Below are positions 1-61,973 of a DNA stretch of 64,000 nucleotides, in pieces (the first letter of the stretch is position 1; the number at the start of each line of letters is the position of its first letter). The notes beneath the pieces are model-generated. The model made no database searches. It saw only the letters and a program-made list of their open reading frames with translations, and had not been told where the DNA came from. The position numbers and the translations under genes were made by a program. Origin of the DNA: a virus; the IMG/VR virus record IMGVR_UViG_3300044620_001243, one strand, 5' to 3'.

Positions 1-231
1 TCTTATCAATGATTTCATTGATTTGTTTGTCCATTACTGTTATTTCTTGAGGAGAACTATTTGTAGTTCCTTCTGTTAATTGTACAGTGATTGTTTGATT
101 GTTAACTGCTTGATTGTTTTTTTTACATCCGCATCCGGCCATAATTAGTGTTTTTTTATAAATATTTGGTTTATTGAAAATAATTTACTATATTTTTGAT
201 GAAAAAATATTAAAATACAAACAAAAAGTAA

Positions 232-885
232 ATGGAAAAAGATTTTAAAATCGTAAAAAGTGTCCAACATTCAAACTATGAGGCGATAAAAAACATCATG
301 GAACTCTATGGTATAGAGAGATTTGACTTAGATTGCACCTACTCAAAAGGTAATTTTTGGAAAAATTTACCTGAACCATTACATAAAACCGACTTGTATC
401 CACATTATGAACATGTTATTGAGGCGAATTCTGAAAATTTACCATTCGAAGATGGTTCAATGAAAAGTATTATGTACGACCCACCTTTTGTTATTGCGGG
501 AAAAACATTTAAAGAAAACAGACCCGGAAGTTCGATTATAGCAAAAAGATTTGAAGGTTATACCACATATAAGGAATTACAAGAAAATTACCACAATACA
601 TTAAAAGAATTATATAGAATTTGTCAAAAAGATGGATTTGTGGTTATGAAATGTCAAGATACCGTGTCAGGGGGTAAACAACACTTTAGTCACGTAATGA
701 TAATGAATATGGCGTTTAAGCTTGGATTTTATCCATTAGATATGTTTGTTTTAATAAATAATGTGAGACTTAATAGTTTTGGTACAAAATGGACAAAACA
801 AGAACATTGTCGAAAATACCACAGTTATTTTTGGGTATTCAAAAAAATTAAACCAAAAGTTAATTATGATTTTATTGGGTTTTGA
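232..885 (+). CDS. putative DNA N6-adenine methyltransferase (phage Dam-like; DPPF motif)
   Basis: 217-aa ORF with SIMYDPPF, the motif IV signature of N6/N4 DNA methyltransferases. No clear FxGxG motif was seen, so the call is tentative. Confidence 0.4.
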   Translation: MEKDFKIVKSVQHSNYEAIKNIMELYGIERFDLDCTYSKGNFWKNLPEPLHKTDLYPHYEHVIEANSENLPFEDGSMKSIMYDPPFVIAGKTFKENRPGSSIIAKRFEGYTTYKELQENYHNTLKELYRICQKDGFVVMKCQDTVSGGKQHFSHVMIMNMAFKLGFYPLDMFVLINNVRLNSFGTKWTKQEHCRKYHSYFWVFKKIKPKVNYDFIGF

Positions 886-1235
886 GGTGAACCCAAATAC
901 ATATTAACCTTGTCTCCAACTTTCATACCTGAACACGTTCCCGATGGAAATTCAATTACATGGTCACCAATACCCGAATATCTTTTTGGGTTCATTTCGT
1001 TTCGACCAGCGGGTTCACAATTTAGGTGAATTTTACTGATTCGACCATTTAATATAAAAACAATATCCAAATTAATAAGACAATTTTTCATCCAAAATGA
1101 ATGATGACCAATTTTACCCATATTAAAAACCATACACCCGTCTAAATGGTCTCTACCCATCATACCTCTTTGGATTTCTTCTGGAGTCGATAGATATTCC
1201 GCAGAATACTTTTGGTTATTAATTATTACTGACAT
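864..1235 (-). CDS. DUF192-family protein
   Basis: Minus-strand 123-aa ORF. STPEEIQRGMMGR...DGCMVF...FWMKNCLINLDIVF resembles the conserved DUF192/COG1430 fold. One of only three minus-strand genes. Confidence 0.5.
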   Translation of the reverse strand: MSVIINNQKYSAEYLSTPEEIQRGMMGRDHLDGCMVFNMGKIGHHSFWMKNCLINLDIVFILNGRISKIHLNCEPAGRNEMNPKRYSGIGDHVIEFPSGTCSGMKVGDKVNMYLGSPQNPIKS

Positions 1236-1806
1236 TTTTTTATAAATATTTGTTTATCTCATTATTTTTTTTTATATTTTAGATATGAGACCCATTTTTG
1301 ACGGAAACTTTAATTTTGAAAACCACATTGAGTTGGAATATGTTTTGGATAATTTAAATCCAAAAATAGCAATTAACATACTAGAATTAGGAATAGAACA
1401 GGGACTAAGGGAAGGTATATATGATTTGACCGAAGTTCATTGTTTATATAAATCACTTAGATTTTTAAAAAATTATGAAGATAAGAATAATAATTTATTC
1501 AATGATAATAATGATGGGGATAATAACTAAATTATTTGTTGATACAACATACATATTTAATCATTATTTTTTGAATGGAATGATTTTCATGTCTTTAGTG
1601 AATATTTTATTAGAATATTTAATTAATAGAAAAAATGGGTAAAATAGAAACTAAAAAATATTTATACGATTTTTTTATTCTTAAAAAGAAACATTTTTGG
1701 TTTTTAATACCAACCCCAATTTTTTATTATAATAAAGAAACGTTTTTTGAAACCGGTGTATATACACCATCATTTGGGTTTACATTTAGGTTTTTAAATA
1801 TTATGA

Positions 1807-2958
1807 TTGGAATACAAATTCAAAAAAACTTATATATTAAAAATGAAAACAAAAATTGAATACGTATGGTTAGATGGATATATATCTGAACCTAATTTAA
1901 GAAGTAAAATAAAAATAATCGATTACGCCAATCCATCAAGAATAACATTGGGGGATATACCTAATTGGGGGTTTGACGGTAGTTCAACAAAACAAGCCGA
2001 AGGTAATTTTTCTGACTGTTATCTTAAACCAATCAAATTATATCGTTCGGATAATAATGAATCAGATACGATTTACGTATTATGTGAAGTTTTGGATGGA
2101 GACAATAATACACATGACTCAAATACTCGAGCATTAATTGGTGATGAAGATATTGATTTTTGGGTGGGTTTCGAACAGGAGTACTTTATCAGAAAAGGTC
2201 ATAATCAAAACATTTTAGGATTTAACGGTACAATCATTGACCCACAAGGAAAATACTATTGTGGTGTTGGTGGACAAATGCATGGAAGACATCTAAGTGA
2301 TGAACATTTGGATATGTGTCTAAAGTATGGAATCAATATTGAAGGAACAAACGCAGAGGTTGCTATTGGTCAATGGGAATACCAAATATTTGGTAAGGGT
2401 AAAATATCAACATCAGATGACTTATGGATGTCTCGATATTTTCTTTATAAATTGGCCGAAAAATATGGATACCAAATTGATTTACATCCAAAACCTATTC
2501 AAATTGGTGAGTGGAATGGTTCAGGTTTACATACAAATTTTTCAAATAAAAAAATGAGAGAAGTTGGAGGAGAAGAATATTTTAACTCAATTTTTAAATC
2601 TTTTTCAAGTAGAACAAAAGAACACATTGATGCATATGGTTCCGATAACCATTTAAGATTAACCGGAAAGTATGAAACACAATCGATTGACAGGTTTAGT
2701 TGGGGATTTTCTGATAGGGGAGCGTCTATTAGGGTACCTAAAATGGTATCTGAAAATTGGACAGGGTATTTGGAAGACAGGAGACCGGCTTCACATGCTG
2801 ACCCATATAGAATTGTTAAAGTTATTTCAGATACGTTAAAATTTGCGGATGAATTATATAAAACGTTATATATGATGTATTACGAATCGGATGTTATTAA
2901 AAATGATTATGGTACATTAACAAAAGATGAACTTCTTAATGATTTCAAACAAGACTAA
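1807..2958 (+). CDS. glutamine synthetase type II-like (catalytic domain)
   Basis: GSII hallmarks are present: EQEYF, NGSGLHTNFS and RFSWGFSDRGASIRVP. The likely true start is the ATG at 1843 (MKTKIEYVWLDGY). Confidence 0.7.
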   Translation: MEYKFKKTYILKMKTKIEYVWLDGYISEPNLRSKIKIIDYANPSRITLGDIPNWGFDGSSTKQAEGNFSDCYLKPIKLYRSDNNESDTIYVLCEVLDGDNNTHDSNTRALIGDEDIDFWVGFEQEYFIRKGHNQNILGFNGTIIDPQGKYYCGVGGQMHGRHLSDEHLDMCLKYGINIEGTNAEVAIGQWEYQIFGKGKISTSDDLWMSRYFLYKLAEKYGYQIDLHPKPIQIGEWNGSGLHTNFSNKKMREVGGEEYFNSIFKSFSSRTKEHIDAYGSDNHLRLTGKYETQSIDRFSWGFSDRGASIRVPKMVSENWTGYLEDRRPASHADPYRIVKVISDTLKFADELYKTLYMMYYESDVIKNDYGTLTKDELLNDFKQD

Positions 2959-3353
2959 TGTTTATACATATAACACCCGACGAACTCGAGGATGAATTTA
3001 AAAATTCTTGGAAAAGTGGATTGTTAACAAACGCTCACATTGATTACGCCACCAATGCGATTCATTGTTTATTTATGAATAGACAAGAAGTTATTGTTTT
3101 TAAATTCGATAAATATGGATTTATAAACGATAATCGATGTAACAAATATTCACTCTCTTCAGGTTCCGCTGGAATAACCATTAAAATAGAAAAAACATGA
3201 TACATCAAGAAATTTTAGACACATTTGTATTTGAAACAATAAATGGTCAGTTCGGTGTTTGCGACCCAACAGAATTCGACCAAATTATTGGTTATTACAG
3301 TACAAAAATTGAAGCTGAAAACGCTTTAAAAGAATATGTAACTCGAGAACAGA

Positions 3354-3734
3354 TTGTTTTTGAATAATATGAGTAGAATATTCTTAATCGATATTGATGG
3401 TACCATTTGTGATGATATCAGTAATGAAAATAGTCACCTTTATCCAAATGCAAAACCTATGGTTGGTGCTCAAAACATCATCAATAAATGGTACGATGAA
3501 GGAAATATCATTACTTTCTTTACCGCTCGTGAATCCAAAGACAGGACAATCACCGAAAATTGGTTAGATACACACGGATTCAAATATCATGGTTTGATTA
3601 TGGATAAACCGCGTATTCAAGATGGTCAAGAATACGTGTGGATTGATAATAGAAAAGTTAGAGCCATAACTTATCTTGGTACTTGGTCTGAGTTAACAGA
3701 AGTAGACGCTAAAATTCAAATGTTTAAAAAATGA
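3354..3734 (+). CDS. HAD-superfamily phosphatase
   Basis: The N-terminal LIDIDGTICDD sequence is the DxDGT motif I of HAD hydrolases. 126 aa. Confidence 0.55.
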   Translation: MFLNNMSRIFLIDIDGTICDDISNENSHLYPNAKPMVGAQNIINKWYDEGNIITFFTARESKDRTITENWLDTHGFKYHGLIMDKPRIQDGQEYVWIDNRKVRAITYLGTWSELTEVDAKIQMFKK

Positions 3735-3919
3735 ATATACGTTTAATAACAAAAATGAAAGAGATACAGACTTTTTATAGAGAAATAGGAAGTTTTTGTT
3801 ACGAATTGTATACGTTGATGTACGCATTCGCATTAAAAGAAAATATACCTTACGGCTTAGATATTCATCTGAAACTCATGGATGTAGTAGAAGAAGAATA
3901 TGCGGGAATTTGATTTTTT

Positions 3920-4567
3920 TTGAATTTTTGTTATATTTGTATTAAACCGAAAATTATTAAAAAAGTTATGAACAACGAGATGAATAACAAAGGAGGAAAA
4001 ACAATTATTATTGATGATGCTAAAGCATTTTTCGAACATCTATCATTTTGGCATAACAAATCAGATGATGAGTGTATTGAATTAGCAACAAATGAATATG
4101 GTTTAGACGCCGAACAAGCATTGAGGAACATGTTCGAAAGAGATTTTGTTACTGGTATGAATAATAATTTAATTGAAGAACTTAAAAATTTAAGAGACAA
4201 TGAGGATGAAGAAAGATACAATCGGATTATTGATGATGCTTATAAGAATTTCAAGAATAATTTCCCGATGAAAAAATCTAACCCACCGAAAGACTATATT
4301 AATAGTAAAGGACAATTACTAACAAAAGAAGAATTCATCAACAAATGTAAAACCGATACAGAATTCTCCCAAAGGTGGGGATTGAAGATTGAACAACGAG
4401 AGTTGAGTTTGGAAGAAAGAGCAAAATGGTTACAAGATAATAAAGGATACGACTTATTGGTTGGTAATTTAGACCACGACCATATAAGAGAAGTTGTTGA
4501 AGAAGAAGCACCAACCAAACTAATCACAATAACATATAACGATAAAACAATAGAAAGCTATGAGTAA
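3920..4567 (+). CDS. hypothetical protein (junction-motif family; contains thyA-derived segment)
   Basis: 215-aa ORF. Its C-terminus TKLITITYNDKTIESYE is shared with downstream ORFs. An internal EEFINKCKTDTEFSQRWG...RELSLEER segment resembles two separated segments of the thyA at 6871. Confidence 0.45.
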   Translation: MNFCYICIKPKIIKKVMNNEMNNKGGKTIIIDDAKAFFEHLSFWHNKSDDECIELATNEYGLDAEQALRNMFERDFVTGMNNNLIEELKNLRDNEDEERYNRIIDDAYKNFKNNFPMKKSNPPKDYINSKGQLLTKEEFINKCKTDTEFSQRWGLKIEQRELSLEERAKWLQDNKGYDLLVGNLDHDHIREVVEEEAPTKLITITYNDKTIESYE

Positions 4568-6870: not shown

Positions 6871-8016
6871 ATGAACAATTTAGATAAAAAATACATAGCA
6901 CTCCTACAAGACATACTTGATAATGGAGTAGAAAAGAAAGACAGGACAGGTACGGGGACTCTATCAGTATTCGGTAGACAAATCCGTCATTCTATGAAAG
7001 ATGGTTTCCCACTATTAACTACAAAGAAGATGTATTTCAAAGGAATTGTAACTGAATTGTTATGGTTCTTGCGTGGCGACACAAACATCAAATTCCTTGT
7101 TGATAATGATTGTCATATTTGGGATGGGGACGCATACAAAAACTATACCAAAAAAATGACATACCACCCAGAAGAAAATTGGTTAGATGATGGAATAGGT
7201 GGGAAAACTTATCGTCAACTCACACAAGAAGAATTCATTAACAAAATCAAGACAGATGATGAGTTTGCTAAGAAGTGGGGGTCGCTCGGGCCCGTGTATG
7301 GTAAGCAATGGAGAAGTTGGAGTAAATTAGAACTTACTGAGGTTGGTAAAGAATTATCTGAAATTTGGGATGGTAGAACACATACTAAACTTGATTTTCC
7401 GATAGACCAAATCGCAAACCTAATCAACGACCTTAAAACAAACCCAGACTCAAGACGATTGATGGTTAGTGCTTGGAATGTTGGAGAATTAGACCAAATG
7501 GTTCTTCCTCCTTGTCACTACAGCTTTCAAGTTTATACAAGAGAGTTGAGTTTACTAGAAAGATATGAACTGATGAAAAAATTAGATAATTGGGTGTCGG
7601 TTCACTACAAAGAGCCTAAGACAATGGAGTATATGGATAAACATAATATCCCAACCAGAGCAATCTCATTAATGTATAACGCCAGAAGCCAGGACGTACC
7701 ATTAGGAACGCCCTTCAACATAGCCTCCTATGCACTACTCTTGGAAATAATTGCAAAGATGGTTAATATGGTTCCTGATGAATTGATTACTAATATGGGG
7801 GATTGTCATATCTACCTCAATCAAATTGAAGGTATTAAAGAACAATTGACAAGAGAACCTTACACACTGCCAAAATTATTGGGAAAGGATGAATATTATT
7901 ACTTAATGGATTTGGATATTCCTTTCTCTGAAAAAATTGATGCATTCAAACCCGATTTTTGGAAATTGGAAAACTACCAATCTCACCCAGCAATTAAATT
8001 ACCATTATCAAATTAA
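6871..8016 (+). CDS. thyA: thymidylate synthase (ThyA, phage td-like with insertions)
   Basis: Carries DRTGTGT, LGPVYGKQWRSW, NPDSRRLMVSAWNVGELD, the catalytic PCH and LGTPFNIASYALL. It is 381 aa because of a T4-td-like insert (…DDEFAKKWGSLG). Confidence 0.85.
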   Translation: MNNLDKKYIALLQDILDNGVEKKDRTGTGTLSVFGRQIRHSMKDGFPLLTTKKMYFKGIVTELLWFLRGDTNIKFLVDNDCHIWDGDAYKNYTKKMTYHPEENWLDDGIGGKTYRQLTQEEFINKIKTDDEFAKKWGSLGPVYGKQWRSWSKLELTEVGKELSEIWDGRTHTKLDFPIDQIANLINDLKTNPDSRRLMVSAWNVGELDQMVLPPCHYSFQVYTRELSLLERYELMKKLDNWVSVHYKEPKTMEYMDKHNIPTRAISLMYNARSQDVPLGTPFNIASYALLLEIIAKMVNMVPDELITNMGDCHIYLNQIEGIKEQLTREPYTLPKLLGKDEYYYLMDLDIPFSEKIDAFKPDFWKLENYQSHPAIKLPLSN

Positions 8017-8526: not shown

Positions 8527-9099
8527 ATGAGTTTAACAAATTACGCAAAAAAAGAATTACAGACCGCCGGTTTCTTTGATGAAGATTCCGATTACGGGGG
8601 TTTAATTGGAGAGGCTGTAATGGAACTTATTGAAGTGTTCGATAAACAAGGACACTCGGGTATGTCTGCTCCTTATGTTGCTTCAATCTTTAACAAACTT
8701 GCCAACTTTGAACCTTTACTACCTATTACAGGTAAAGATGAAGAATGGGGAGATGTTAAGGATTTGGAAAGTGGAAAACCTTGGTATCAAAACAGGAGAT
8801 GTTCTGCTTTATTTAAAGATGGGAAGGATGGAAAACCCTACTTCATACACGCAATTATTAAAAGAGACCAAAATGGGAGTTGTTGGAGTGGAATGGCGTG
8901 GTTAAATGAAGAAGATTACAAATCAGGCGATAGAAGTAAAATGGTTGGAAAGAAGGGGTATGTTAAATCATTTCCTTTTGTTCCTAAAACATTTTACATT
9001 GATGTTAAGGATGTTGAGGTAGGAAAAGATGATTGGGAATCATTTGTTGTCGACCCATCACAATTGGAAGAGGTGTGGGAGTATTATGATAAGGATTAA
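8527..9099 (+). CDS. hypothetical protein
   Basis: 190-aa ORF. Confidence 0.4.
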   Translation: MSLTNYAKKELQTAGFFDEDSDYGGLIGEAVMELIEVFDKQGHSGMSAPYVASIFNKLANFEPLLPITGKDEEWGDVKDLESGKPWYQNRRCSALFKDGKDGKPYFIHAIIKRDQNGSCWSGMAWLNEEDYKSGDRSKMVGKKGYVKSFPFVPKTFYIDVKDVEVGKDDWESFVVDPSQLEEVWEYYDKD

Positions 9100-10139: not shown

Positions 10140-10787
10140 ATGGCATATTTAAATCACAATTTACCTTTAACATCCTGTCTAATTAGAAATGAATTTTTAT
10201 ACAACCACGAAAAGGGACATGGAGAATATACCGTCGCAAATATGCATTCTGTGGCATCAGTGGAGGGTATGGTACCATTATTCGAAGCCTTTTTAGAAAA
10301 TGGTGTAAATTGGACTCGAAGACCGATTCATGCTTTTTGTTGGAAAAAAGATGCAGAAGTATTACCACTAACCGAACATGTATATTGGGATTCTTTTAGT
10401 CCGTACATTGATGTTCAAGTTAGGGCAAGGTTGTATCCACTCAGTGCTGAGTTAATTTCAATCACGGGAGTGAAAAGAAGAGGTGTTTATATGTTCACAC
10501 TTGACTGGTCTCATGAAAATAAAACCATGTTAGATACAAATTTTTCAGAAACAACTGAACACAAATGTGGACATATGTTCAAGATGGATAATGGCAATTA
10601 TTTTATTTACCCAAATAATCGAATTTTGTGGATAGATAAGGCATTTACATTTAAAAGAATAGACAAAAATCCTGGATTTAAAATAGATAGGACAATATAC
10701 ACGGTTGATTCCAATTCAGATTATTTCACGGATGAGAATTATATCACAAATTTTGAAAAAAATCCAAACACCAATGATAAAAGTTAA
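10140..10787 (+). CDS. hypothetical protein
   Basis: 215-aa ORF. Confidence 0.35.
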   Translation: MAYLNHNLPLTSCLIRNEFLYNHEKGHGEYTVANMHSVASVEGMVPLFEAFLENGVNWTRRPIHAFCWKKDAEVLPLTEHVYWDSFSPYIDVQVRARLYPLSAELISITGVKRRGVYMFTLDWSHENKTMLDTNFSETTEHKCGHMFKMDNGNYFIYPNNRILWIDKAFTFKRIDKNPGFKIDRTIYTVDSNSDYFTDENYITNFEKNPNTNDKS

Positions 10788-11139
10788 AACTATAATTAAA
10801 CTATCACCAGGTAAAGGAGTTGGATTATTTGCTTTAGAAAATATTATGAAAGGTCAATTAATTTACGATGAGGGAAGTTATGAAAAAATATTTCATAAAG
10901 ATAATCTGTCAAATTTAAACCAACATGAAATAGATTATTATGAAAATTATTCTTGGCGTGTTGGTGATTATATTTACCTTTCTACTGACAATACTATGTA
11001 CATAAATCATTCAAATGAACCAAATATAGATGGTATGAGTGGACGAGCGTTGAAAAATATTAAAATTGGAGAAGAATTAACTGAAGATTATTCAACATTT
11101 GATGCGGATTTTAATGATTACATCGAAACTTACATTTAA
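10774..11139 (+). CDS. SET-domain protein (putative protein-lysine methyltransferase)
   Basis: GKGVGLFA, NHSNEPN (compare the SET motif NHSCxPN) and GEELTEDY (compare ELTxDY). Start moved to the in-frame ATG at 10774. Confidence 0.6.
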   Translation: MIKVKTIIKLSPGKGVGLFALENIMKGQLIYDEGSYEKIFHKDNLSNLNQHEIDYYENYSWRVGDYIYLSTDNTMYINHSNEPNIDGMSGRALKNIKIGEELTEDYSTFDADFNDYIETYI

Positions 11140-11403: not shown

Positions 11404-12246
11404 ATGATAAAATGGGTCACCTCCATTATAGAAAAATATAAAAAATCATTATTATTAATTTATTTTTACATTTTTATCTCCCAAATTATTTTTTTACTTG
11501 AACCATATGTTTTGGGTAAATCAATAGACGGATTGATAAATAAAGACTATTCGTGGATAATCGTTTTTTTACTTATAGATTTACTTGGATGTTTTTTTAT
11601 ATATAAAAGAATGGTATTTGATACAAAAATTTATACATCAATATACAACGATATTGTTTTTAATTATTTAGACAACACGAAAGATGGTGATGTTTCTACC
11701 AAATTGGGTAGAACAGACTTAGCACACAATATCATTGATTTTCTCGAACACCATATTCACTATTACATTGTTTCAATATTAACGGTTGTTGGTACACTTA
11801 TTTTTATAATGTATTCACATTTATTGACGGGATTAATTGCATTATCTACAACACCTTTTATTTGTTTTATTGTTTGGAAGTTTTATAGGAAAATTGCTCA
11901 ATCAACACAAGTAAGCCATAATCATCATGAAAAAAAAATGAACATTTTCAACACCAATAATGATGGATTTATAAAATCATTTTTTGAGAGAAGAAAAAAA
12001 TTGTGGATTTTTGGTTCAACAATTCAGGGAAAAAATTGGACAGCATTAAACACTACAAAAACATTTTTTTTGGTTTTATGTTTGGTGATATTTACAAATA
12101 AAAATATTAATTTATCACAAGGGGAGGCGATAGCAATGTATTCTTACATTAATCAATTTTTAAATTCTTTATTGTCTATACCTGTTGGTATGGAAATGTT
12201 TACAAGAATGAAAGATGTTATTCAAAGATTAAACACAACAATATGA
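11404..12246 (+). CDS. integral membrane protein
   Basis: 280 aa with multiple hydrophobic segments. Confidence 0.4.
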   Translation: MIKWVTSIIEKYKKSLLLIYFYIFISQIIFLLEPYVLGKSIDGLINKDYSWIIVFLLIDLLGCFFIYKRMVFDTKIYTSIYNDIVFNYLDNTKDGDVSTKLGRTDLAHNIIDFLEHHIHYYIVSILTVVGTLIFIMYSHLLTGLIALSTTPFICFIVWKFYRKIAQSTQVSHNHHEKKMNIFNTNNDGFIKSFFERRKKLWIFGSTIQGKNWTALNTTKTFFLVLCLVIFTNKNINLSQGEAIAMYSYINQFLNSLLSIPVGMEMFTRMKDVIQRLNTTI

Positions 12247-12463: not shown

Positions 12464-13846
12464 ATGAAAGCAATAAAAGTACTAATAATAATTTTCGGTG
12501 TAATTTTTACAATTTACTCCTGTACAAAAGAAGAAACAATAACACCTGTTGATTTCCCTAAAGATTTGGGGATTGATAATTTTAAATTTCCTGAAGATTC
12601 TCTTGAGATAATGAAATGGGTCGAAAATCAAGATACACATAAAATAGTTTCACATGCTTGGGGTATTTGGGCGGGGTTAACCGAACCAACAAATCAAAAA
12701 TACAACGGTCAGACCTTATTGGTTTTTGAAACATGGATGGGAGTTCAAGAACTTGCGGCAATGTCCGCAAATGGACAAATCGCAAACAATAATATGGTTC
12801 GAAAAAATAGAACAAATTTAAATGTACCAAAACAATTTGTTCACGGTTTTTTATTAACTGGCGAAAAACACATCGTTGACACCAATTTTTCGGTGTTGGA
12901 AACGGTTTCTTATGACCCATCCGCATCAAAATTTGTAACAGAAAACTCACTTTTTAACCAATCAAAATTAAATTCATATAAAAAAGATGGACAAATAAGT
13001 AGTATTCCTGAGTTTCCAAATACATCAATCACAATAAAACCAACGTATTACGCTGGTGTTCCAAATAAAGATGGTTATATAAGAGTCCCTGTTTGGACAG
13101 AACCATACGGACCGGGTGCTTACAAATATACTGAATGGAAAGAATGGGTCTTTGTCGATATAAAAAATAGACAAGAAGAAGGTAAAGTTATATATCCAAC
13201 AACAGACCCATCTCCATCAAATAATGATATGTATTGGTCAACATGCAACTTAAAGGACTTTATTCATTATAAAATTGATAGAGTTGGTGCTGATTATTTA
13301 AATAATCATCAAGATGTTGGAACATCACCGAGTAGACAATTTATTGATGGTGATTACGTATTGTTAGTGGCAATGCACGTTACAACTAAGGAATTTAAAA
13401 ATTGGACTTGGCAAACATTTTTTTGGGTTCCTAATATTGAAAGTCCACCATATCCAAGTTCGTGGTTTGAATCAAATTTAATGCCCGTTGAATTAAAAGG
13501 AGCTGCTTCACATTATGCCGTTAGTGTGGCATATGCCATGGTTTGGCCAAATCAACCTGTTACTGGTGGTACGGATAAAGACGCCAGACCTATAATTGCC
13601 TTTAACCCATATTTGGAAGGTGGATTTGGACCAAAAGTTTTCAAATTACCAAATAAATTTAGAACTGATTTTGTTTACGGCATGCAAACCAATTGCATGT
13701 CCTGTCACGCGTTATCAACAATGTCTGGTAAAAATGGATATACAACAAACCAATACATTGATATGATGGATACTACACTTTTTAAAAACGACGTAAAATT
13801 AGATTTTACGTGGTCTATTCAAGGAAATATTAATTTGGATAAATAA
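12464..13846 (+). CDS. secreted lipoprotein with CxxCH motif
   Basis: Signal peptide with a lipobox (…FTIYSC). The C-terminal TNCMSCH is a heme-binding-type CxxCH motif. 460 aa. Confidence 0.45.
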   Translation: MKAIKVLIIIFGVIFTIYSCTKEETITPVDFPKDLGIDNFKFPEDSLEIMKWVENQDTHKIVSHAWGIWAGLTEPTNQKYNGQTLLVFETWMGVQELAAMSANGQIANNNMVRKNRTNLNVPKQFVHGFLLTGEKHIVDTNFSVLETVSYDPSASKFVTENSLFNQSKLNSYKKDGQISSIPEFPNTSITIKPTYYAGVPNKDGYIRVPVWTEPYGPGAYKYTEWKEWVFVDIKNRQEEGKVIYPTTDPSPSNNDMYWSTCNLKDFIHYKIDRVGADYLNNHQDVGTSPSRQFIDGDYVLLVAMHVTTKEFKNWTWQTFFWVPNIESPPYPSSWFESNLMPVELKGAASHYAVSVAYAMVWPNQPVTGGTDKDARPIIAFNPYLEGGFGPKVFKLPNKFRTDFVYGMQTNCMSCHALSTMSGKNGYTTNQYIDMMDTTLFKNDVKLDFTWSIQGNINLDK

Positions 13847-13893
13847 AATAATTTTATTAATTTTGTGATATTTATAAATAAAAAAATATCACT

Positions 13894-15225
13894 ATGAAAA
13901 TGAACTTTTTCAACAGATTTCTAAGTTTTGTAAATAAAAAAAACCATAACAAAGAAAGGGCAAAAAAAATAGAAGAACTAAGTAAAAAAATTACATTACT
14001 TGAGCCCGTAGTTGCGGTGGTACCTGTCGTGGAAGAAACACCTGTTGTAGAAGAAATACCGGTAATTGAAGAAACACCTGTCGTGGAGGAACCCGTTGTA
14101 GAAGAGGTACCAGTAATTGAAGAGACACCTGTAGTTGAAGAAACACCTGTTGTAGAAGAACCTGTCGTGGAGGAAACACCTGTTGTAGAAGAAACACCTG
14201 TTGTAGAAGAGGTACCAGTAGTTGAAGAAGTACCTGTTGTAGAAGAGGTACCAGTAATTGAAGAAACACCTGTCGTGGAGGAACCTGTTGTAGAAGAGGT
14301 ACCGGTAATTGAAGAAACACCTGTTGTAGAAGAACCTGTCGTGGAGGAAACACCTGTTGTAGAAGAACCTGTCGTGGAGGAAACACCTGTTGTAGAAGAA
14401 ACACCTGTTGTAGAAGAGGTACCAGTAGTTGAAGAAGTACCTGTTGTAGAAGAGGTACCAGTAATTGAAGAAACACCTGTTGTAGAAGAACCTGTCGTGG
14501 AGGAAACACCTGTTGTAGAAGAACCTGTCGTGGAGGAAACACCTGTTGTAGAAGAAACACCTGTTGTAGAAGAGGTACCAGTAGTTGAAGAAGTACCTGT
14601 TGTAGAAGAGGTACCAGTAATTGAAGAGACACCTGTAGTTGAAGAAACACCTGTTGTAGAAGAACCTGTCGTGGAGGAAACACCTGTTGTAGAAGAAACA
14701 CCTGTTGTAGAAGAGGTACCAGTAGTTGAAGAAGTACCTGTTGTAGAAGAGGTACCAGTAATTGAAGAAACACCTGTCGTGGAGGAACCTGTTGTAGAAG
14801 AGGTACCGGTAATTGAAGAAACACCTGTTGTAGAAGAACCTGTCGTGGAGGAAACACCTGTTGTAGAAGAACCTGTCGTGGAGGAAACACCTGTTGTAGA
14901 AGAAACACCTGTTGTAGAAGAGGTACCAGTAGTTGAAGAAGTACCTGTTGTAGAAGAGGTACCAGTAATTGAAGAAACACCTGTTGTAGAAGAACCTGTC
15001 GTGGAGGAAACACCTGTTGTAGAAGAACCTGTCGTGGAGGAAACACCTGTTGTAGAAGAAACACCTGTTGTAGAAGAGGTACCAGTAGTTGAAGAAGTAC
15101 CTGTTGTAGAAGAGGTACCAGTAATTGAAGAGACACCTGTAGTTGAAGAAACACCTGTTGTAGAAGAACCTGTCGTGGAGGAAACACCTGTTGTAGAAGA
15201 ACCTGTGGTAGAGGAGACACCATAA
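13894..15225 (+). CDS. acidic tandem-repeat protein (PVVEE/PVIEE hexapeptide repeats)
   Basis: About 70 copies of (E/T/V)PV(V/I)EE, organised into a higher-order repeat of roughly 240 nt. The minus-strand ORF over the same span is a repeat artefact. Confidence 0.55.
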   Translation: MKMNFFNRFLSFVNKKNHNKERAKKIEELSKKITLLEPVVAVVPVVEETPVVEEIPVIEETPVVEEPVVEEVPVIEETPVVEETPVVEEPVVEETPVVEETPVVEEVPVVEEVPVVEEVPVIEETPVVEEPVVEEVPVIEETPVVEEPVVEETPVVEEPVVEETPVVEETPVVEEVPVVEEVPVVEEVPVIEETPVVEEPVVEETPVVEEPVVEETPVVEETPVVEEVPVVEEVPVVEEVPVIEETPVVEETPVVEEPVVEETPVVEETPVVEEVPVVEEVPVVEEVPVIEETPVVEEPVVEEVPVIEETPVVEEPVVEETPVVEEPVVEETPVVEETPVVEEVPVVEEVPVVEEVPVIEETPVVEEPVVEETPVVEEPVVEETPVVEETPVVEEVPVVEEVPVVEEVPVIEETPVVEETPVVEEPVVEETPVVEEPVVEETP

Positions 15226-15300: not shown

Positions 15301-17031
15301 ATGGAGATTTTAAACCAAAGATTTCAGTATTTCACAATAGACTTGTGCCAAAATTATTCAAACATAAATGGCTCGGATTGTTCCGATTCATATGATTTTG
15401 AAAAGTACAGGTACATGTCATTGACCCCAAAAGAAAAAAATCCAAAAAGAACAAAATACTATTACACAAATGACGCGCGTGGTGAAAGAATAATATTAAA
15501 ATCTTGTTTCCCAAAACCAATTGAGACACAAAAAGAAAAACAATTAAAAAGACATTATGGTAATCCTTTTGCTCAAGTAGAGACACATTTTAAACAAAGG
15601 AGTGTTAAAATTATTGATAATAAAATTTCTTTTAGAATTTTTAGTCATTCAAAATATAGGGGTATCAATGATAAATTTTTTATAAAAACCTCAAATGTCA
15701 AAATCATAAAAATGGATTTAAATACTGGAGATTTTACCTTATGCGATATTAATTCTAAATTGAAAAGGAAACAATTTAGAAAAAATAATTTTGAAACTTT
15801 AAAAAATTTTATAACTGAACATGATTTTTTTACAAAAAAATATCATTTATCTAATGAATCTTTAATGAAAGAACAAAACATATCATTAAATGATGATATG
15901 TTTATTGATGTTTTATTGAAAAAAATTTCTTCAAATTTGGAAAGTAAAGAGGTTTCCAATATGGATATTTACAATGCATTTATTGATTTTTTCGTTATGA
16001 AGAAAAAAATCAAAACACCAAACAACTACCACTCTCTTATTTCAAATTTATACCCAACAGAAAAATTTCTCAAGAAAAACGATAGAAAATTAATACTATC
16101 CGTTTTAGATAGTTTTGGGATGAAATCAAAATTTTTCATAAAATATTTTCATGAAAATTCAGACAAATCAATAGTGGTGCACTCATTTTTTGTTAAGTTT
16201 TTTGGTGACGATTATCCAAAATACATGACAGCATTGTCTCCGATGTACTATCACCAATCAAAAATTGAGAATTCCAAAGTTTCAGTTCCTACCGTTAAAG
16301 ATAGAAAAATAAAATTTATTACTTTTTTAGAAAAGAAAGAAAAAGAGAATCTTGTTAAAATAATTAATTCATTTATTAATTGTCAAGATTTTTTAAAACA
16401 TGAATCGACACCACTTAGAACTCTTTGTTTACTTATAGATGACCATATTGAAATGTACAAAAAAATAAAAGATTATGAAATCGATGTCAAAATTAATGCA
16501 ACTAATAAGGAATCATTTATGTTAGAACACCAAGAATTTACTAGACTATCTTCTTTGATAAAAAAAGGTTGGACGATAGAATATCAATATGACAATAGAA
16601 TGGTTAGATACGTGGAATCACCAATTACAGTAAATTATGTGAATAAAGAATATACGTTTTTCCCAATCATACTAAAAAGAGAAGAAGAATATGAAACCGA
16701 AGGTGATTTTATGCACCACTGTGTTGCGTCTTATTCATCAAAAGAAAATTCGTTAATTGTTTCACTGAGGACAAATAATGGGATGGATAGGGTGACCTGT
16801 GAGTTCAATAAAAAAACAGGTGAATGTGTGCAATCGAGACATTTTTGTAATGCCAATCCCCCAAAACATTTTGAAAGGGCACTAGATATTTTAGATTCAA
16901 GAGTTAAAAGATTCAAAAACCAAAGATTACTTAACCATGTGGATGTTAAAAAAGTTAGGGTATGTATAAATGGAATAGAAATAAAAAATAATACGGTTAA
17001 CAATGAAGTGTTACATCATTTACCATTTTAA
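15301..17031 (+). CDS. hypothetical protein
   Basis: 576-aa lysine-rich ORF. Confidence 0.45.
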   Translation: MEILNQRFQYFTIDLCQNYSNINGSDCSDSYDFEKYRYMSLTPKEKNPKRTKYYYTNDARGERIILKSCFPKPIETQKEKQLKRHYGNPFAQVETHFKQRSVKIIDNKISFRIFSHSKYRGINDKFFIKTSNVKIIKMDLNTGDFTLCDINSKLKRKQFRKNNFETLKNFITEHDFFTKKYHLSNESLMKEQNISLNDDMFIDVLLKKISSNLESKEVSNMDIYNAFIDFFVMKKKIKTPNNYHSLISNLYPTEKFLKKNDRKLILSVLDSFGMKSKFFIKYFHENSDKSIVVHSFFVKFFGDDYPKYMTALSPMYYHQSKIENSKVSVPTVKDRKIKFITFLEKKEKENLVKIINSFINCQDFLKHESTPLRTLCLLIDDHIEMYKKIKDYEIDVKINATNKESFMLEHQEFTRLSSLIKKGWTIEYQYDNRMVRYVESPITVNYVNKEYTFFPIILKREEEYETEGDFMHHCVASYSSKENSLIVSLRTNNGMDRVTCEFNKKTGECVQSRHFCNANPPKHFERALDILDSRVKRFKNQRLLNHVDVKKVRVCINGIEIKNNTVNNEVLHHLPF

Positions 17032-43430: not shown

Positions 43431-44411
43431 ATGAAAACAAAAAAAACTCAATTTGTAAATCTTTATGACGTATACAAAATAATTTTTAGTGATGATAAAA
43501 CTAAATATATTGATATGTTGTCAAGAATTTCAACTAAAAGTATTGAAAACGTTGAATTAATCAACTTACGAGAACATTTACTATCGTATGGTATTGGCGT
43601 TGATGTTTTAGATAAAATGTCAAATGTTGATTTATTGTTTCTTCATTCTGTTATGGATGGGATATTTCGTTATCACATGAAACTTGATAAGCAAGAAATT
43701 CAAACCGTAAGGAAGTTTATTGAATACAATGAGAGAGGTTTAATTGCAAATAATGATGTGTCCACATATAAAGATTTTAAAGAATTAGAAGATTCTGTTA
43801 GAATTGCAAATCTCAAAAGTCTTGATAAAGAAATGAGTAAAGAAATAAAAGAAATTTATTCTGACGATGAATGGTTTGTTTTAAGACCACTCACCACTTT
43901 ATCTGGTGAAAAATATGGATACGGTACTAAATGGTGCACAACCATGAATTCTGAATATTTTTTAAGATATTCACGAAATGGTATTTTGATTTACATAATC
44001 AATACAAAGACAGGAAAAAAAGTTGCATGTCATTCCTCTTTGGTAGAAGAAAATTCTACTTCTTTTTGGAATGAAGCAGATAATAGGGTGGACTCGATTG
44101 ACACAAATTTACCCGATTTTATTCTTGAAAAATTAAGAGTTGAACTTAAAAGTGGGGTAGACAATTTCAGTTTTCTTTCTGAAGAAAAACAAAAAATTGA
44201 ATTAGATAAAATTCATATAACCCTTAAAGAAAGTCATGAAATTGTAGAAAATATGGCAATGGATGAAATAATGGGGGAGGATGAGATGATTCCGACTCCA
44301 ATAAATCTGCATGAAAATATACGAAGGATGATAAATGGTGGTGGGGTGACGGGATTAAGAGGAAATGAATACGAACCCACGGAACAGAGGGAAGAAATTA
44401 GTGAAGAATAA
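43431..44411 (+). CDS. hypothetical protein
   Basis: 326-aa ORF preceded by a TACATTTG box. Confidence 0.4.
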   Translation: MKTKKTQFVNLYDVYKIIFSDDKTKYIDMLSRISTKSIENVELINLREHLLSYGIGVDVLDKMSNVDLLFLHSVMDGIFRYHMKLDKQEIQTVRKFIEYNERGLIANNDVSTYKDFKELEDSVRIANLKSLDKEMSKEIKEIYSDDEWFVLRPLTTLSGEKYGYGTKWCTTMNSEYFLRYSRNGILIYIINTKTGKKVACHSSLVEENSTSFWNEADNRVDSIDTNLPDFILEKLRVELKSGVDNFSFLSEEKQKIELDKIHITLKESHEIVENMAMDEIMGEDEMIPTPINLHENIRRMINGGGVTGLRGNEYEPTEQREEISEE

Positions 44412-44627: not shown

Positions 44628-44653
44628 GTATTCTGAATATGAAAATAAACAAT

Positions 44654-44727
44654 AGCGGGGTGGTGGCAGATGGTAGCCCGCCAGGCTCATAACCTGGAGG
44701 TCGTAGGTTCGAGTCCTACCCCCGCAA
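44654..44727 (+). tRNA. tRNA-Met (CAT); 1:72 A:A mismatch, could be an initiator or a tRNA-Ile2-type
   Basis: Anticodon stem CCAGG/CCTGG with loop CTCATAA. T-arm GTAGG-TTCGAGT-CCTAC. Acceptor AGCGGGG/CCCCGCA. Promoter box TATATTTG at 44620. Confidence 0.8.
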
Positions 44728-44791
44728 CCGTATAGTTTTTGTTCTTTGACATCTTGGGAATTAAAAGTAAAAGTCGAGAGACTTAAAAATT

Positions 44792-44901
44792 AGTCAGGTG
44801 GCGGAATTGGTAGACGCAAGTGAGAATAGTAATTGCGCTGATGTAGCGGCAGATGCAGTAAGTTATTATTCATACAGGTTCGAGTCCTGTCCTGACTACC
44901 A
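44792..44901 (+). tRNA. tRNA-like unit 1 (Leu-type scaffold, 56-nt variable core, CCA encoded)
   Basis: 5' AGTCAGGTGGCGGAATTGGTAGACGC … ACAGGTTCGAGTCCTGTCCTGACTACCA 3'. Acceptor strands are complementary. No canonical anticodon arm was found. Confidence 0.5.
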
Positions 44902-44992
44902 AAGAAACAAGTAAAACGCAAACGCACAGTCCCTTGATGCATCAGGTGAGGCGCACACTGTATACTGGATGACCTCTGTTTCTTTTTTAATC
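44902..44992 (+). repeat. 91-nt spacer, identical copy at 45370-45460
   Basis: Exact duplicate following the two CCA-encoding units 1 and 3. It contains an AGAAACA…TGTTTCT helix followed by a T-run (terminator-like). Confidence 0.7.
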
Positions 44993-45101
44993 AGTCAGGT
45001 GGCGGAATTGGATAGACGCATTGAGGAATCTAAACTTGGTAGCATTTGTTAGATTTAATAGTAATCCTCCTTCCTTACAGGTTCGACTCCTGTCCTGACT
45101 A
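44993..45101 (+). tRNA. tRNA-like unit 2 (variable core 57 nt)
   Basis: Same conserved flanks. The core has a GAGGA…TCCTC stem enclosing 37 nt. Confidence 0.5.
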
Positions 45102-45267
45102 CGACAGTTAGCAGATAATACTTGGTAGTTCTTGTAACGTCTGACTATGCGTGAGGTGGTTTTATAACTTTCCACCAGCTGGTCCAAAACTAAAAGTTAA
45201 TACAGGTTTAATAACGGGGTGAAGGAAAGTCTAACTAACAAGTACTTCACTACCTACTGTAAAAATT

Positions 45268-45369
45268 AGTCAGGTGACGAAATTGGTAGACGTGCCACGA
45301 ATAAAACTAAGTGGTGGAGAAACAGCTTTCAGGCACTCCATACAGGTTCGAGTCCTGTCCTGACTACCA
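45268..45369 (+). tRNA. tRNA-like unit 3 (CCA encoded; compensatory D-stem A10:T25)
   Basis: D-stem ACG/CGT versus GCG/CGC in the other units. Followed by the same 91-nt spacer as unit 1. Confidence 0.5.
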
Positions 45370-45460
45370 AAGAAACAAGTAAAACGCAAACGCACAGTCC
45401 CTTGATGCATCAGGTGAGGCGCACACTGTATACTGGATGACCTCTGTTTCTTTTTTAATC

Positions 45461-45558
45461 AGTCAGGTGGCGGAATGGTAGACGCACTGGACAGGCGATG
45501 CATTTAAAACAGAAATAAGCCCAGTCGGTACTTACAGGTTCGAATCCTGTCCTGACTA
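45461..45558 (+). tRNA. tRNA-like unit 4
   Basis: Conserved flanks. The core has an ACTGG…CCAGT stem with a 30-nt loop. Confidence 0.5.
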
Positions 45559-45926
45559 CAAATCTTAGGAGTAATTAACCTAAGACTGAGAGGTTCGAAA
45601 CTCTCGATTGGCTATGGTGTAATGGGCACAGAGAAACGGAGTACGAAAGGGGTTACGGGAATTTTCCCGCAAACATCAGAAACGGGACTCAGGATTATGG
45701 TTCGAATCCATATTAGTCAACAAGCCGTCTTTTTTTCTTGTCCGCCGTGGACGTGGATTGTTGAGACGTAAAAGTAACAATCGATTGATTAGAGAACGGT
45801 AGGATACAGGTTCACTAGACGAAGGTAGAAGTTTTTTTTTGATAGATGGGTTTGAGTTCTTTATAACAACAAACCAACTATAATTCAGTAGGGACAAATG
45901 GGAGCGGCTTACTCCAGTCCCGAAAT

Positions 45927-46085
45927 AGTCAGGTGGCGGAATTGGTAGACGCTATGAAATCATGTTTTAAGATTGAACGGGTAGGCAGACGTAACATATA
46001 GGTAAAAGAGTGTTATCGCCGAATACACTTATAAGGGTCCTATGAAAAAACTTCAATCATACAGGTTCAAGTCCTGTCCTGACTA
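45927..46085 (+). tRNA. tRNA-like unit 5 (110-nt core)
   Basis: Conserved flanks with T-arm ACAGGTTCAAGTCCTGT. The very long core suggests an insertion or intron. Confidence 0.45.
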
Positions 46086-46328
46086 CACGTTCCGAAACAG
46101 ACAACGGATAGTTCCACTATGAACGATGAGAAACAGGGTGATGTCCTGTATTAGTTATCGCCTCCCGAATGCGGTCGGGATAGGTTGACCACCTAAACAT
46201 CAGCAATGTGAACGGTCTATTTCTAACTCACCTACGTTTGTAAGACAACATAGAAGTGACGAGACGGGAAACTCGTCGTGAGGACATCCAAGACACCTGT
46301 AAGTTGGATAAATTAGGGTGTTATTTTT

Positions 46329-46451
46329 AGTCAGGTGTGGGTAAAAATGCGCTAACTGGAAACCCACTGAAAGCGAAAGCAAAGTCGAGGTCTAAATGCG
46401 CACTATGGCCGAGGTAATGGCGAGATACAGGTTCAAGTCCTGTCCTGACTA
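46329..46451 (+). tRNA. tRNA-like unit 6 (altered D region)
   Basis: Acceptor AGTCAGG/CCTGACT and T-arm conserved. The D region is replaced by TGGG…CCCA. Confidence 0.4.
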
Positions 46452-46596
46452 CAAAGACAATGGTTTTCCCCATTCAACGGATGTCGACAATCCAGAATGG
46501 AATCGGAATTCAGCACCCTCAGCCGAGGCGCCTCGTAAAACTACGATTAAGCTGTTAAGATTGGAGCGAGACGGGTACTCCATCATTGTCTTATTT

Positions 46597-46668
46597 GGTC
46601 GGTTCATCTAGAGGTTAGGATACAAGATTTTCATTCTTGTCACATGGGTTCGATTCCCATACCGACTA
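46597..46668 (+). tRNA. tRNA-Glu (TTC)
   Basis: Clean cloverleaf. Acceptor GGTCGGT/ACCGACT, D GGAT-loop-ATCT, anticodon stem CAAGA/TCTTG with loop TTTTCAT, T-arm ATGGG-TTCGATT-CCCAT. 72 nt. Confidence 0.8.
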
Positions 46669-46833
46669 CCTTGGAGGTATAGGGGTAAACCCTTGAGGCG
46701 AAGTACAAGCCATAGTCACTGAACTTAAACTGACCTCCAACCAAATTAGAAGTGTCGCAATACGCGTTTCAATCTAATTGATAGACGTATCAATGAAGAT
46801 GTTCGAGGGTGAAAATCCCAAGCTTCTAATCCT

Positions 46834-46938
46834 CCATTCTTAGTGTTATGTGGTTAAAACACGTTAACTCTTACATCGCCTGATTAGCGCTAATCCGAAT
46901 GTAAGACGAGTAAGTTGGTTCGAATCCAACAGAATGGA
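46834..46938 (+). tRNA. tRNA-like gene with distinct acceptor (CCATTCT/AGAATGG), canonical D and T arms, and a 26-nt insertion inside a TCTTAC/GTAAGA helix (possible intron-containing tRNA)
   Basis: D-arm GTGT-loop-ACAC and T-arm GTTGG-TTCGAAT-CCAAC. The core is too long for a type I tRNA and the anticodon is unresolved. Confidence 0.45.
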
Positions 46939-47216
46939 CAATGAGTAAGAGATACTCAGAGTCTTTGGTCTAAGACTTAAACAATAGACTCGCAGAATGT
47001 CTACGGCGTGAGTGGGACATCATGGGAACAAAGAAGAGTCACACACCTTCTCCCAGTAGTGTTGACAGGTTTTTATGTGGTAAGACACTAATGAAAAAGA
47101 CTCGTTCTATGGGGTACTTATCTGGAGTATCAAACAAGTGTGAGTGATATGGTTCTCGAACAGACAGAGAAACCCGTTAAAATCTACCCGTCTGGAATCT
47201 CAGGATGGGGAAACAT

Positions 47217-47319
47217 AGTCAGGTGGCGGAGTGGGCTAACGCTAACTTGGAAGAGTCTGAGGAGTGGTAACCAAGTACCTATACTCTGATGACCGCAGGT
47301 TCGAATCCTGTCCTGACTA
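47217..47319 (+). tRNA. tRNA-like unit 7
   Basis: Conserved flanks (D-loop variant AGTGGGCTAA, T-stem GCAGG). The core has a CTTGG…CCAAG stem. Confidence 0.45.
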
Positions 47320-47337
47320 CAAAAATAAATTAAAATT

Positions 47338-47598
47338 ATGTTTATAGAAAGATTTTTTAACCCCTATGTGTCATCTCACGAAAGGGTATTATATGAGAAT
47401 AAAGAAGCAATTGAACATTGTTTGAAATATCATACATGGATTAGACATTATTCATTTGAAGGTGATGAATATATCAAAAATGTTAATGGTAAATTAGTTT
47501 GGAATGATGGTAGTAAAGTTGATAAAAGAAAATTACCTAAAAAAGGAAAAGGATGGGGCAGATATTCAAGTGAACTTTATAATTTGTGTTCTTTTTAA
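47338..47598 (+). CDS. small hypothetical protein embedded in tRNA island
   Basis: 86-aa ORF that exactly fills the gap between units 7 and 8. Confidence 0.35.
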   Translation: MFIERFFNPYVSSHERVLYENKEAIEHCLKYHTWIRHYSFEGDEYIKNVNGKLVWNDGSKVDKRKLPKKGKGWGRYSSELYNLCSF

Positions 47599-47605
47599 AT
47601 TAAAT

Positions 47606-47751
47606 AGTCAGGTGGCGGAATTGGTTAGACGCTGTAAAAGTAAGATATGGGAATTGTGCACTCGGTAAACCTACGCACAAGGCTTAGATAGTTGTGCAAC
47701 AGCGGAAAGTCTTACAAAACTATCTTACAGGTTCGAATCCTGTCCTGACTG
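47606..47751 (+). tRNA. tRNA-like unit 8 (95-nt core closed by 8-bp GTAAGATA/TATCTTAC helix; discriminator G)
   Basis: Conserved flanks. The self-contained closing helix suggests an inserted element or intron. Confidence 0.45.
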
Positions 47752-47906
47752 CAAAATTAAAGATATGTTTAGAACATTAAATTATATTTGGAAATTGTTT
47801 TGGAAAAGACCTAGTAGAAGAGTATTTTTTATATTTTTTAGAATGCTAAAAACGGAAATTAAGTGTTTAATGTTGACTGGATACTCAACAGATGAATTAC
47901 TAAATT

Positions 47907-48033: not shown

Positions 48034-48085
48034 AGTTAACCCACTAAGACTAGAAACGGGTGACACCTCGGAAAGACGAGGACAT

Positions 48086-54256: not shown

Positions 54257-54261
54257 ATAAC

Positions 54262-61967: not shown

Positions 61968-61973
61968 TCAAAC

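Follow-up and report, generated by a model that had tools for sequence, protein, structure and literature searches.

The subject of this analysis is a gene made almost wholly of short acidic repeats, carried by the phage of IMG/VR record IMGVR_UViG_3300044620_001243. The window, that is, the whole 64,000-nt stretch of DNA that was analysed, comes from a large freshwater phage of ~30% GC with nearly all of its genes on one (+) strand; its relatives are IMG/VR contigs of 73–335 kb, and its host is probably a member of the Bacteroidota. The open reading frame (ORF) is complete, with 443 amino acids (aa) and a stop codon, and its product would have a mass of ~49 kDa, an isoelectric point (pI) of ~4.05 and a net charge of −132. 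Five residues (V, 154; E, 142; P, 71; T, 33; I, 13) together account for 93% of the protein. The features of the locus are as follows.

13865..13892, + strand: inverted repeat GTGATATTT / AAATATCAC, with 9-bp arms around a 10-nt loop, its end 1 nt ahead of the ATG
13894..15225, + strand: the ORF, whose start, N-terminus, C-terminus and stop recur in 14 further assemblies of this species of phage
13894..14022, + strand: non-repeat N-terminal module MKMNFFNRFLSFVNKKNHNKERAKKIEELSKKITLLEPVVAVV, aa 1–43, net charge +6, pI 10.2
14023..15222, + strand: acidic repeat array, aa 44–443, 69 units and a terminal TP, net charge −138
14095..15201, + strand: 504-nt super-unit in 2.2 tandem copies without mismatch, with an exact run of 603 nt at lag 504
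13991..15223, − strand: antisense ORF, 410 aa, L/Q/V/P-rich

Reading frame and architecture of the repeat gene

The array is built from TPVVEE (31 units), PVVEE (16), VPVVEE (12), VPVIEE (9) and IPVIEE (1), so that 53 of its 69 units are hexapeptides of 18 nt and 16 are pentapeptides of 15 nt; the terminal TP is followed directly by a TAA stop. The PV[V/I]EE core occurs in 11 DNA versions among the units of the window and in 13 when all alleles are pooled. At least 10 third-position substitutions in the + frame are needed to relate the versions of the core, against one elsewhere (GTT to ATT, which changes V to I), a bias with a binomial p of 1.3e-4. GAA or GAG, each one step from a stop, makes up 138 of the 400 array codons, and a stop has arisen in none of the alleles; the few amino-acid variants among alleles are confined to T/V/I/S. 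Because the variation between units falls nearly always in the third position, stops are lacking and the termini are conserved, the ORF is a protein-coding gene in the + frame and its array is under constraint at the level of the amino acids. Neither strand is interrupted by stops across the array, which is what a repeat would lead one to expect. The third positions of the + frame are the second positions of the antisense ORF, which has 71 distinct 6-mers as against 29 in the + frame, and the 410-aa antisense ORF is a by-product of the repeat and no gene.

Above the level of the single unit, the units fall into three blocks, A (TTpTTVVI, 141 nt), B (TpITpTpTTVVI, 207 nt) and C (TpTpTTVVI, 156 nt), the sum of which is 504 nt. 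The autocorrelation of the array peaks at this distance (92.7%), followed by 660, 156, 678 and 363 nt, and the super-unit is present in two whole copies (14095–14598 and 14599–15102) and a partial third (15103–15201). This 504-nt layer is either the newest layer of duplication or the part of the array most exposed to assembly error. The initial annotation, which was made from the letters of the DNA, had placed a 443-aa protein at 13894–15225, and ORF calling recovered the same coordinates and strand; its description of a protein made nearly entirely of acidic repeats, strongly negative overall and opening with a lysine-rich N-terminus, agrees with the composition and charges given above. Its count of about 70 units was right, too, although only three quarters of them are the hexapeptides that it took them all to be. 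Of the two nested periods that it proposed, the one of 18 nt stood (Tandem Repeats Finder reported period 18, 67.9 copies and a score of 883), whereas the one of about 240 nt was found neither in the autocorrelation nor in the unit parsing of the array, the long period being 504 nt.

The array is predicted to be an intrinsically disordered, extended polyanion. AlphaFold2, run on the single sequence, gave a mean predicted local distance difference test (pLDDT) score of 33.8, with 442 of 443 residues below 50, and drew helices of low confidence only at aa 5–7 and 19–27. By its charge and hydropathy the protein falls where the Uversky line predicts disorder (net charge per residue 0.298, boundary 0.271), with a fraction of charged residues of 0.34, so that by prediction it belongs to the physical class of intrinsically disordered polyelectrolytes. 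If fully extended, the 400 residues of the array would have a contour length of ~125–145 nm. No signal peptide or transmembrane (TM) segment was found in the ORF, and aa 1–43 hold no hydrophobic stretch long enough for one. The N-terminal module may form a short amphipathic helix at aa 5–15 (FFNRFLSFVNK, with a maximal hydrophobic moment of 0.71), and aa 19–27 may form a charged one.

Directly upstream of the start codon, the 13865–13892 inverted repeat folds as a hairpin of −8.6 kcal/mol in RNA (z = −2.19; 7 of 200 shuffled sequences were equally good). It is present in all strains, which are too alike for an analysis of covariation, and from its sequence could be a weak terminator of the upstream operon or a hairpin that controls translation. 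A −7 motif, TAATTTTG, at 13858–13865 fits the consensus of the Bacteroidota type; no promoter is claimed here, since the window holds 115 matches to the consensus motif TANNTTTG where 105 would be expected, which is no enrichment.

As a separate observation on codon usage, CCT has a 73% share of the proline codons of the repeat gene against 24% in the other ORFs of the window, and the phage encodes a tRNA-Pro (48086–48171, +) with the predicted anticodon AGG, which is unusual for bacteria. A tRNA-Glu(UUC) lies at 46597–46670, and the repeat gene holds 142 Glu codons. This match between tRNAs and codons could be a coincidence or could reflect codon supply.

Length alleles and the second array

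Other assemblies of the locus were located by exact look-up of the neighbouring 460-aa and 74-aa proteins and of a short product of the gene itself, P0121. ENA, JGI and Logan yielded 14 further assemblies that belong to this phage species, 13 of them with DNA. Identity of the flanks to the window was 96.5–100% in the 13 assemblies measured and 97–100% in 12 of them. All 15 sequences share the start, the N-terminal 45 residues and the ..EETP* end, with A23V in one assembly (L022) as the sole exception. Between these ends the number of units differs from 2 up to 69 in near-identical strains, the complete alleles being of 56 aa (L141/L144), 120 aa (L146), 206 aa (L018), 266 aa (an allele without DNA), 269 aa (L147) and 443 aa (the window). 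At least six unit orders occur (pTJTpITT.., pTJTTTtTT.., pTTITTI.., pITpTITpITIT.., pIITITTTT.. and pI). The 206-aa allele equals that of the window minus 711 nt, that is, minus blocks B, C, A and B.

The array is a documented point of failure for short-read assemblers, being the breakpoint in 8 of the 14 comparison assemblies, where five contigs end inside it and three scaffolds have a 100-N gap. The array of the 56-aa allele comprises two units in 33 nt, and array and both flanks lie within one 141-mer of a MEGAHIT contig, so that, given how de Bruijn assemblers behave, this allele must exist in the reads and is the sole allele immune to repeat collapse. It sits on a haplotype of its own, 51 single-nucleotide polymorphisms away from its nearest relative, L147, whose array starts with pI.. 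and ends with ..I-TP; the short allele could have arisen by a deletion from one unit to an identical one. The expectation of the initial annotation that the region is prone to length variation was thus borne out. Its proposed refutation, that assembly collapse or expansion might conceal stops in the true sequence, does not apply, because all units are multiples of three: with units of 12, 15 and 18 nt, and one frame and one stop in all alleles, a wrong copy number cannot bring in stops. The array is also a candidate variable number tandem repeat (VNTR) marker for telling apart strains of this widespread freshwater phage.

Outside the species, the gene was not found. The N-terminus (aa 1–46), searched with HMMER against 1.84 billion representatives, had no relative except P0121, which is a truncated or short copy of itself, and the module had no other relative in a clustered set of 5.8 billion. 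A peptide scan of IMG/VR and JGI metagenome contigs likewise returned no relative of the module, and the syntenic regions of related phages hold no trace of it. A scan of GTDB genomes gave four unrelated low-complexity matches (Clostridia and Bathyarchaeia) and no clue to the host, and a megablast search with 8 kb gave a sole match of 80 nt, denV-like, in T4-like phages of Acinetobacter. No gene of an isolated phage was similar to the ORF in a tblastn search, where the low-complexity filter masks the query. Neither the 443-aa nor the 206-aa product was present in the collection on exact protein look-up, no related solved structure was found in a sequence search of the PDB, and NCBIfam held no relevant match for the ORF. 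By these searches the gene is a young ORFan confined to one phage species. In relatives whose upstream lipoprotein-like gene is 67–72% conserved, the slot between that gene and the PcfJ gene is filled by a 103/107-aa TM protein, by a 2H-phosphoesterase-like gene with that same TM protein, or by other genes. Because relatives hold other genes there, the repeat gene appears to be a recent arrival, limited to this species, in an accessory slot of variable content.

The same phage species encodes a second protein with an array of this kind. Variants of 280–354 aa consist of a four-helix membrane domain, a PVVEE/PVIEE/PIVE array and a conserved ..NNEEEKKN end. Two contigs with a 100%-identical membrane domain also carry window positions 1–4257 at 98% identity; because contigs with the 4-TM array also carry this part of the window, the window phage has two PVVEE arrays. 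In the same species (L041, L042 and L020) the 4-TM gene lies ~16 kb upstream of the start of the window, and in a phage-like contig it adjoins genes for a sigma factor and ClpP. Its membrane domain is conserved in 80 IMG/VR loci (69–100% identity; the other loci are L043–L120), including contigs with relatives of PcfJ, where it lies ~31 kb upstream of PcfJ. Every tail is acidic and of low complexity, with a sequence and length that are hypervariable (219–520 aa; PVVEE-, PT- or E-rich). The 4-TM protein matched no Pfam or PHROG family, AlphaFold2 gave it a pLDDT of 45, and by the positive-inside rule the tail would be cytoplasmic. The two proteins are alike in having a PVVEE-type array of variable length in the same phage species and differ in that the 4-TM protein has four TM helices, an ..EEKKN end and a lineage-wide distribution, whereas the window gene is species-restricted, lacks TM segments and has a different N-terminus. 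The two arrays share five core DNA versions, with a longest shared exact run of 24 nt; their common origin is possible from these sequences, although the same residues and codon bias would also yield such sharing.

Known repeat proteins and the role of the tail

A search with the whole protein gave 574 matches, which join PVVEE, PVIEE or PVAEE arrays to unrelated domains, among them ABC permeases, CHAP and M23 peptidases, the ribosomal proteins L17, S16, S2 and S1, HU, and the A-domains of FtsY. All are compositional, and they were rejected as evidence of a family. Short (TPVVEE)3–6 linkers also occur in 14 unrelated IMG/VR contigs. To judge from these sequences, PVVEE-type arrays elsewhere represent the convergence of a linker or tail motif and no family. 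The Pfam model LED_rpt (PF20854) matched the ORF in four stretches with 80.8 bits, above its gathering cut-off of 59 (E = 1.3e-22); as the model also matches CHAP, M23, L17 and S1 proteins, the match reports composition and type of repeat, neither function nor common descent. The PHROG matches of the ORF were to families of unknown function and again compositional. In a literature search, PVVEE repeats in phages went unmentioned, and nothing relevant on the LED repeat was found.

As a concept, the closest counterpart is provided by the amino-acid tandem-repeat (aaTR) proteins of Borgs (Schoelmerich et al. 2023, PMC9879509), and the window protein is a member of this in-frame tandem-repeat (aaTR/VNTR) kind. 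The Borg proteins are encoded by a giant mobile element with genes on one strand and contain in-frame repeats with unit lengths divisible by three; they are enriched in P/T/E, predicted to be disordered and fast-evolving, and differ in unit number between close genomes (PMC9879509). Some of their ORFs are almost wholly repeats, which assemblers often break or collapse (PMC9879509). The phage gene resembles them in its units of 12, 15 and 18 nt and in ranging from 2 to 69 units at 97–100% flank identity. Borg units hardly ever differ from one another in a nucleotide, which marks them as very recent (PMC9879509), whereas the phage core has 11–13 DNA versions and only the 504-nt layer is perfect; the 15/18-nt units thus belong to an older array, under amino-acid constraint and synonymously diverged. 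The Borg is, moreover, an archaeal element, as opposed to a bacteriophage with a probable Bacteroidota host. The acidic repeat protein Arp of Treponema pallidum (TP0433; PMC10013896) also has acidic repeats, encoded in frame, that contain V, E and P, the commonest unit being REVEDVPKVVEPASEREGGE, and their number and order vary between strains and cultures. Its units are of 60 nt, in a bacterial protein that has other regions as well, and it has no sequence relationship to the phage protein, the units of which are of 5–6 aa and without basic residues.

Proteins dominated by P, E and V, such as the PEVK and poly-E segments of titin and the proline-rich spacer of TonB, are extended, prone to polyproline II and serve as entropic springs or rigid spacers. 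The phage array differs in having no lysine, which makes it a pure polyanion, and in having neither flanking folded domains nor a TM anchor; Pfam gave no match to PPAK or TonB, and the protein has neither the N-terminal anchor nor the C-terminal domain of a TonB-like protein. A left-handed beta-helix of hexapeptides was considered and rejected, with LbH_EIF2B at 22.8 bits against a cut-off of 54, a register broken by the 16 pentapeptide units and no fold from AlphaFold2.

FtsY shares the layout of the phage protein: its N-terminus is basic and aromatic (M..FF/WFKK..), and a long, disordered acidic region of low complexity comes next. The disordered A-domain of E. coli FtsY helps in the association with membrane and translocon. 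Two FtsY proteins come close in layout, P0096 (MFDFFKKK.., a charged helix and TPVVEE repeats) and P0030 (MLGWFKKKF.. and then acidic repeats). The ORF is no FtsY or signal recognition particle receptor, as it has no match to PF02881 or PF00448 and ends inside the repeat. BLASTP against P0096 aligned the repeats only, and the resemblance is one of architecture and composition.

The reading that we prefer, tentatively and with a probability of roughly 0.45, is that of a genuine young phage gene for a non-virion protein, in which a basic docking head carries a disordered polyanionic tail that acts by charge and excluded volume and is changed in length by slippage and recombination. The conserved 43-aa basic module would be the docking or functional part, and its possible amphipathic helix might provide peripheral binding to the cell membrane from the inside, or else binding to a protein or a nucleic acid. 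With no fold of its own, the tail would serve as a bristle or spacer, electrostatic or entropic in nature; alternatively, it may be a decoy or sponge for basic partners such as nucleic-acid-binding proteins, polyamines or divalent cations. Replication slippage and unequal recombination between identical units would let the array grow and shrink, with the frame always kept because all unit lengths are multiples of three, and the population would come to hold tails that range in length from 2 units to 69 or more. We infer that the protein is cytoplasmic or peripheral to the membrane, that it acts electrostatically and that the length of the tail matters. A polyanionic decoy or mimic is possible and would fit the accessory, anti-defence neighbourhood, although its linear charge density is well below that of double-stranded DNA (dsDNA).

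Several points weigh against this reading. The test for constraint is based on only 11 inferred substitutions, and some unit versions could have been imported from the array of the paralogous 4-TM gene. The low single-sequence pLDDT is compatible with disorder but is no proof of it, and the amphipathicity of the N-terminus was not significant in a shuffle test (p ~0.1), such that the helix is kept as a possibility only. The perfect 504-nt copies and the many assemblies that are broken in the region make the unit numbers of the long alleles, that of the window included, provisional. The limitation of the gene to one phage species weakens any claim to an important conserved role, and the 56-aa allele shows that the phage can exist with hardly any array, a sign that it may not need the tail.

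This last point leads to neutral runaway expansion, in which any function would reside in a basic peptide of 45–56 aa and the array would be tolerated as a harmless acidic, Pro-rich and soluble sequence while drifting in length without a role of its own, an explanation that we find doubtful but well worth weighing. It would accommodate the two-unit allele on its distinct haplotype, an eight-fold range of length with several unrelated unit orders at 97–100% flank identity, a newest (504-nt) layer without mismatch, and the absence of the gene from all relatives outside the species; retention of the frame would be automatic with units of 12, 15 and 18 nt. It sits poorly with variation that is nearly all synonymous (10:1, p = 1.3e-4), with the lack of stops despite 138 stop-adjacent codons and with amino-acid variants that stay within T/V/I/S, and the keeping of acidic 4-TM tails across 80 divergent loci suggests selection for such tails. 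That the array is not a coding feature at all is very improbable. It would then be a repeat that acts as DNA, such as origin iterons or a site for packaging or recombination, or else an assembly artefact open by chance. In favour of this, origins and pac sites are sometimes marked by tandem repeats, neither strand of the array is closed by stops, and eight assemblies break off or have gaps in it; against it, only the + frame shows the third-position pattern, the start codon, the N-terminal module and the stop are all conserved, and every unit length is a multiple of three. Cumulative GC skew climbs monotonically with no inflection at 14–15 kb, an Rfam scan found nothing relevant at the array, and the presence of the array in 15 independent assemblies means that the locus itself is no artefact.

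An association with the virion, which the initial annotation had suggested, either as a capsid-displayed polyanionic brush or fibre anchored by the N-terminal module or as an internal or ejected protein, is unlikely. Large phages do carry many unannotated virion proteins, and an extended chain of ~125–145 nm is fibre-like, if in dimension only. Against this, the gene is set among metabolic, accessory and lysis genes, and searches of Pfam, PHROGs and NCBIfam gave no match to capsid, portal, terminase or tail families among the ~46 ORFs of the window that were scanned. The protein has neither a fold or oligomerisation domain nor a signal peptide or TM segment, no homologue is annotated as structural, its PHROG matches are of unknown function, and a polyanion of −132 packed beside DNA would be electrostatically unfavourable. 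Equally improbable is a specific mimic, of the N-terminal helix and A-domain of FtsY or of nucleic acid, that would compete, in host takeover or anti-defence, for SecYEG or the membrane, or for DNA-binding defence or nucleoid proteins. The parallel with the two FtsY proteins, the Tad3 anti-defence gene nearby and the position in a variable accessory slot speak for it, but the N-terminus neither aligns with FtsY nor has a HMMER relative, and the two-unit allele would mimic poorly. Ocr, ArdA and the pentapeptide-repeat proteins MfpA/Qnr are strongly acidic proteins of phages or plasmids, encoded in early or accessory regions and folded, with charges placed like those of B-DNA, and work through electrostatic mimicry. 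The ORF matched none of their Pfam, PHROG or NCBIfam families and gave no confident structure, and the linear charge density of its tail would be much lower, at ~1 per nm as against ~6 per nm for dsDNA.

A further extension of the preferred reading, to which we give little credence, would make this a contingency gene, with a length-tunable tail docked by the basic head, perhaps at the inner membrane beside the 4-TM tail, as a decoy or shield against a host factor, and with unit number under diversifying selection. Candidate targets would be membrane or translocon sites, through competition like that of an FtsY A-domain, or basic DNA-binding defence proteins, through sponging. If true, repeat slippage would be an adaptive mechanism in a virus. 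More generally, a functional tail would mean a natural series of 2, 13, 28, ~40 and 69 units in near-identical genomes, which could serve to ask how a viral function responds to the length of a disordered polyanion, and whether phages have in slippage a fast adaptive switch like that of bacterial contingency loci; a neutral array would simply be a young ORFan that repeat expansion has enlarged. The allelic series from 2 to 69 units and the paralogous array in the same phage are the points of note here; the function we infer.

Neighbouring genes and other observations

The genes around the repeat gene are of metabolic, accessory and lysis types, several of them unusual for phages:

1807–2958, + strand: glutamine-synthetase-like auxiliary gene, unusual for phages
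6871–8016, + strand: thymidylate synthase, intact in the window
8527–9099, + strand: Tad3, an inhibitor of type I Thoeris (Pfam PF25185, 129.6 bits), 5 kb upstream of the repeat gene
10140–10787, + strand: ferredoxin-like (phrog_3704), unusual for phages
10705–11139, + strand: SET-domain protein, unusual for phages
11404–12246, + strand: ABC protein with a membrane domain only, with the appearance of an overlapping operon together with a 74-aa ORF and the 460-aa protein
12464–13846, + strand: 460-aa lipoprotein-like protein with a lipoprotein-type signal (..VIFTIYSC), just upstream of the repeat gene
15301–17031, + strand: PcfJ-like gene, downstream of the repeat gene

The 460-aa protein has a CxxCH motif of the haem-c type (NCMSCH), matches phrog_19967 (function unknown), has no Pfam domain and is 67–72% conserved in related phages. 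The window has a single PcfJ-like gene, 42% identical to its relatives, whereas relatives carry two tandem paralogues of 611 and 467 aa (L001, 6001–9263). Beyond it lie a denV-like glycosylase on the opposite strand, a holin and an M23 peptidase.

The thymidylate synthase gene is split in two by a NUMOD1 ORF in strain L017 (1087–2928), and a GIY-YIG/NUMOD3 ORF lies near it in strain L149 (15–779), a pattern that suggests presence/absence polymorphism of a homing endonuclease or intron. Another auxiliary gene unusual for phages, for an NDP-hexose 2,3-dehydratase, is found at 49002–50435 (+). Clusters of tRNA genes occupy 44650–48360 and 61400–63030 (+), stretches without long ORFs, where ARAGORN predicted 6 tRNAs and Rfam 10; the long Rfam matches of 98–124 nt that are absent from the ARAGORN set (45461–45558, 47217–47319, 47907–48030 and 62329–62435) may be tRNAs that contain introns or inserts. 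At 53525–55616 (+), three adjacent paralogues of 243, 211 and 237 aa all match phrog_5925 and phrog_17056, families of unknown function, and the ORF at 43431–44411 also matches phrog_17056.

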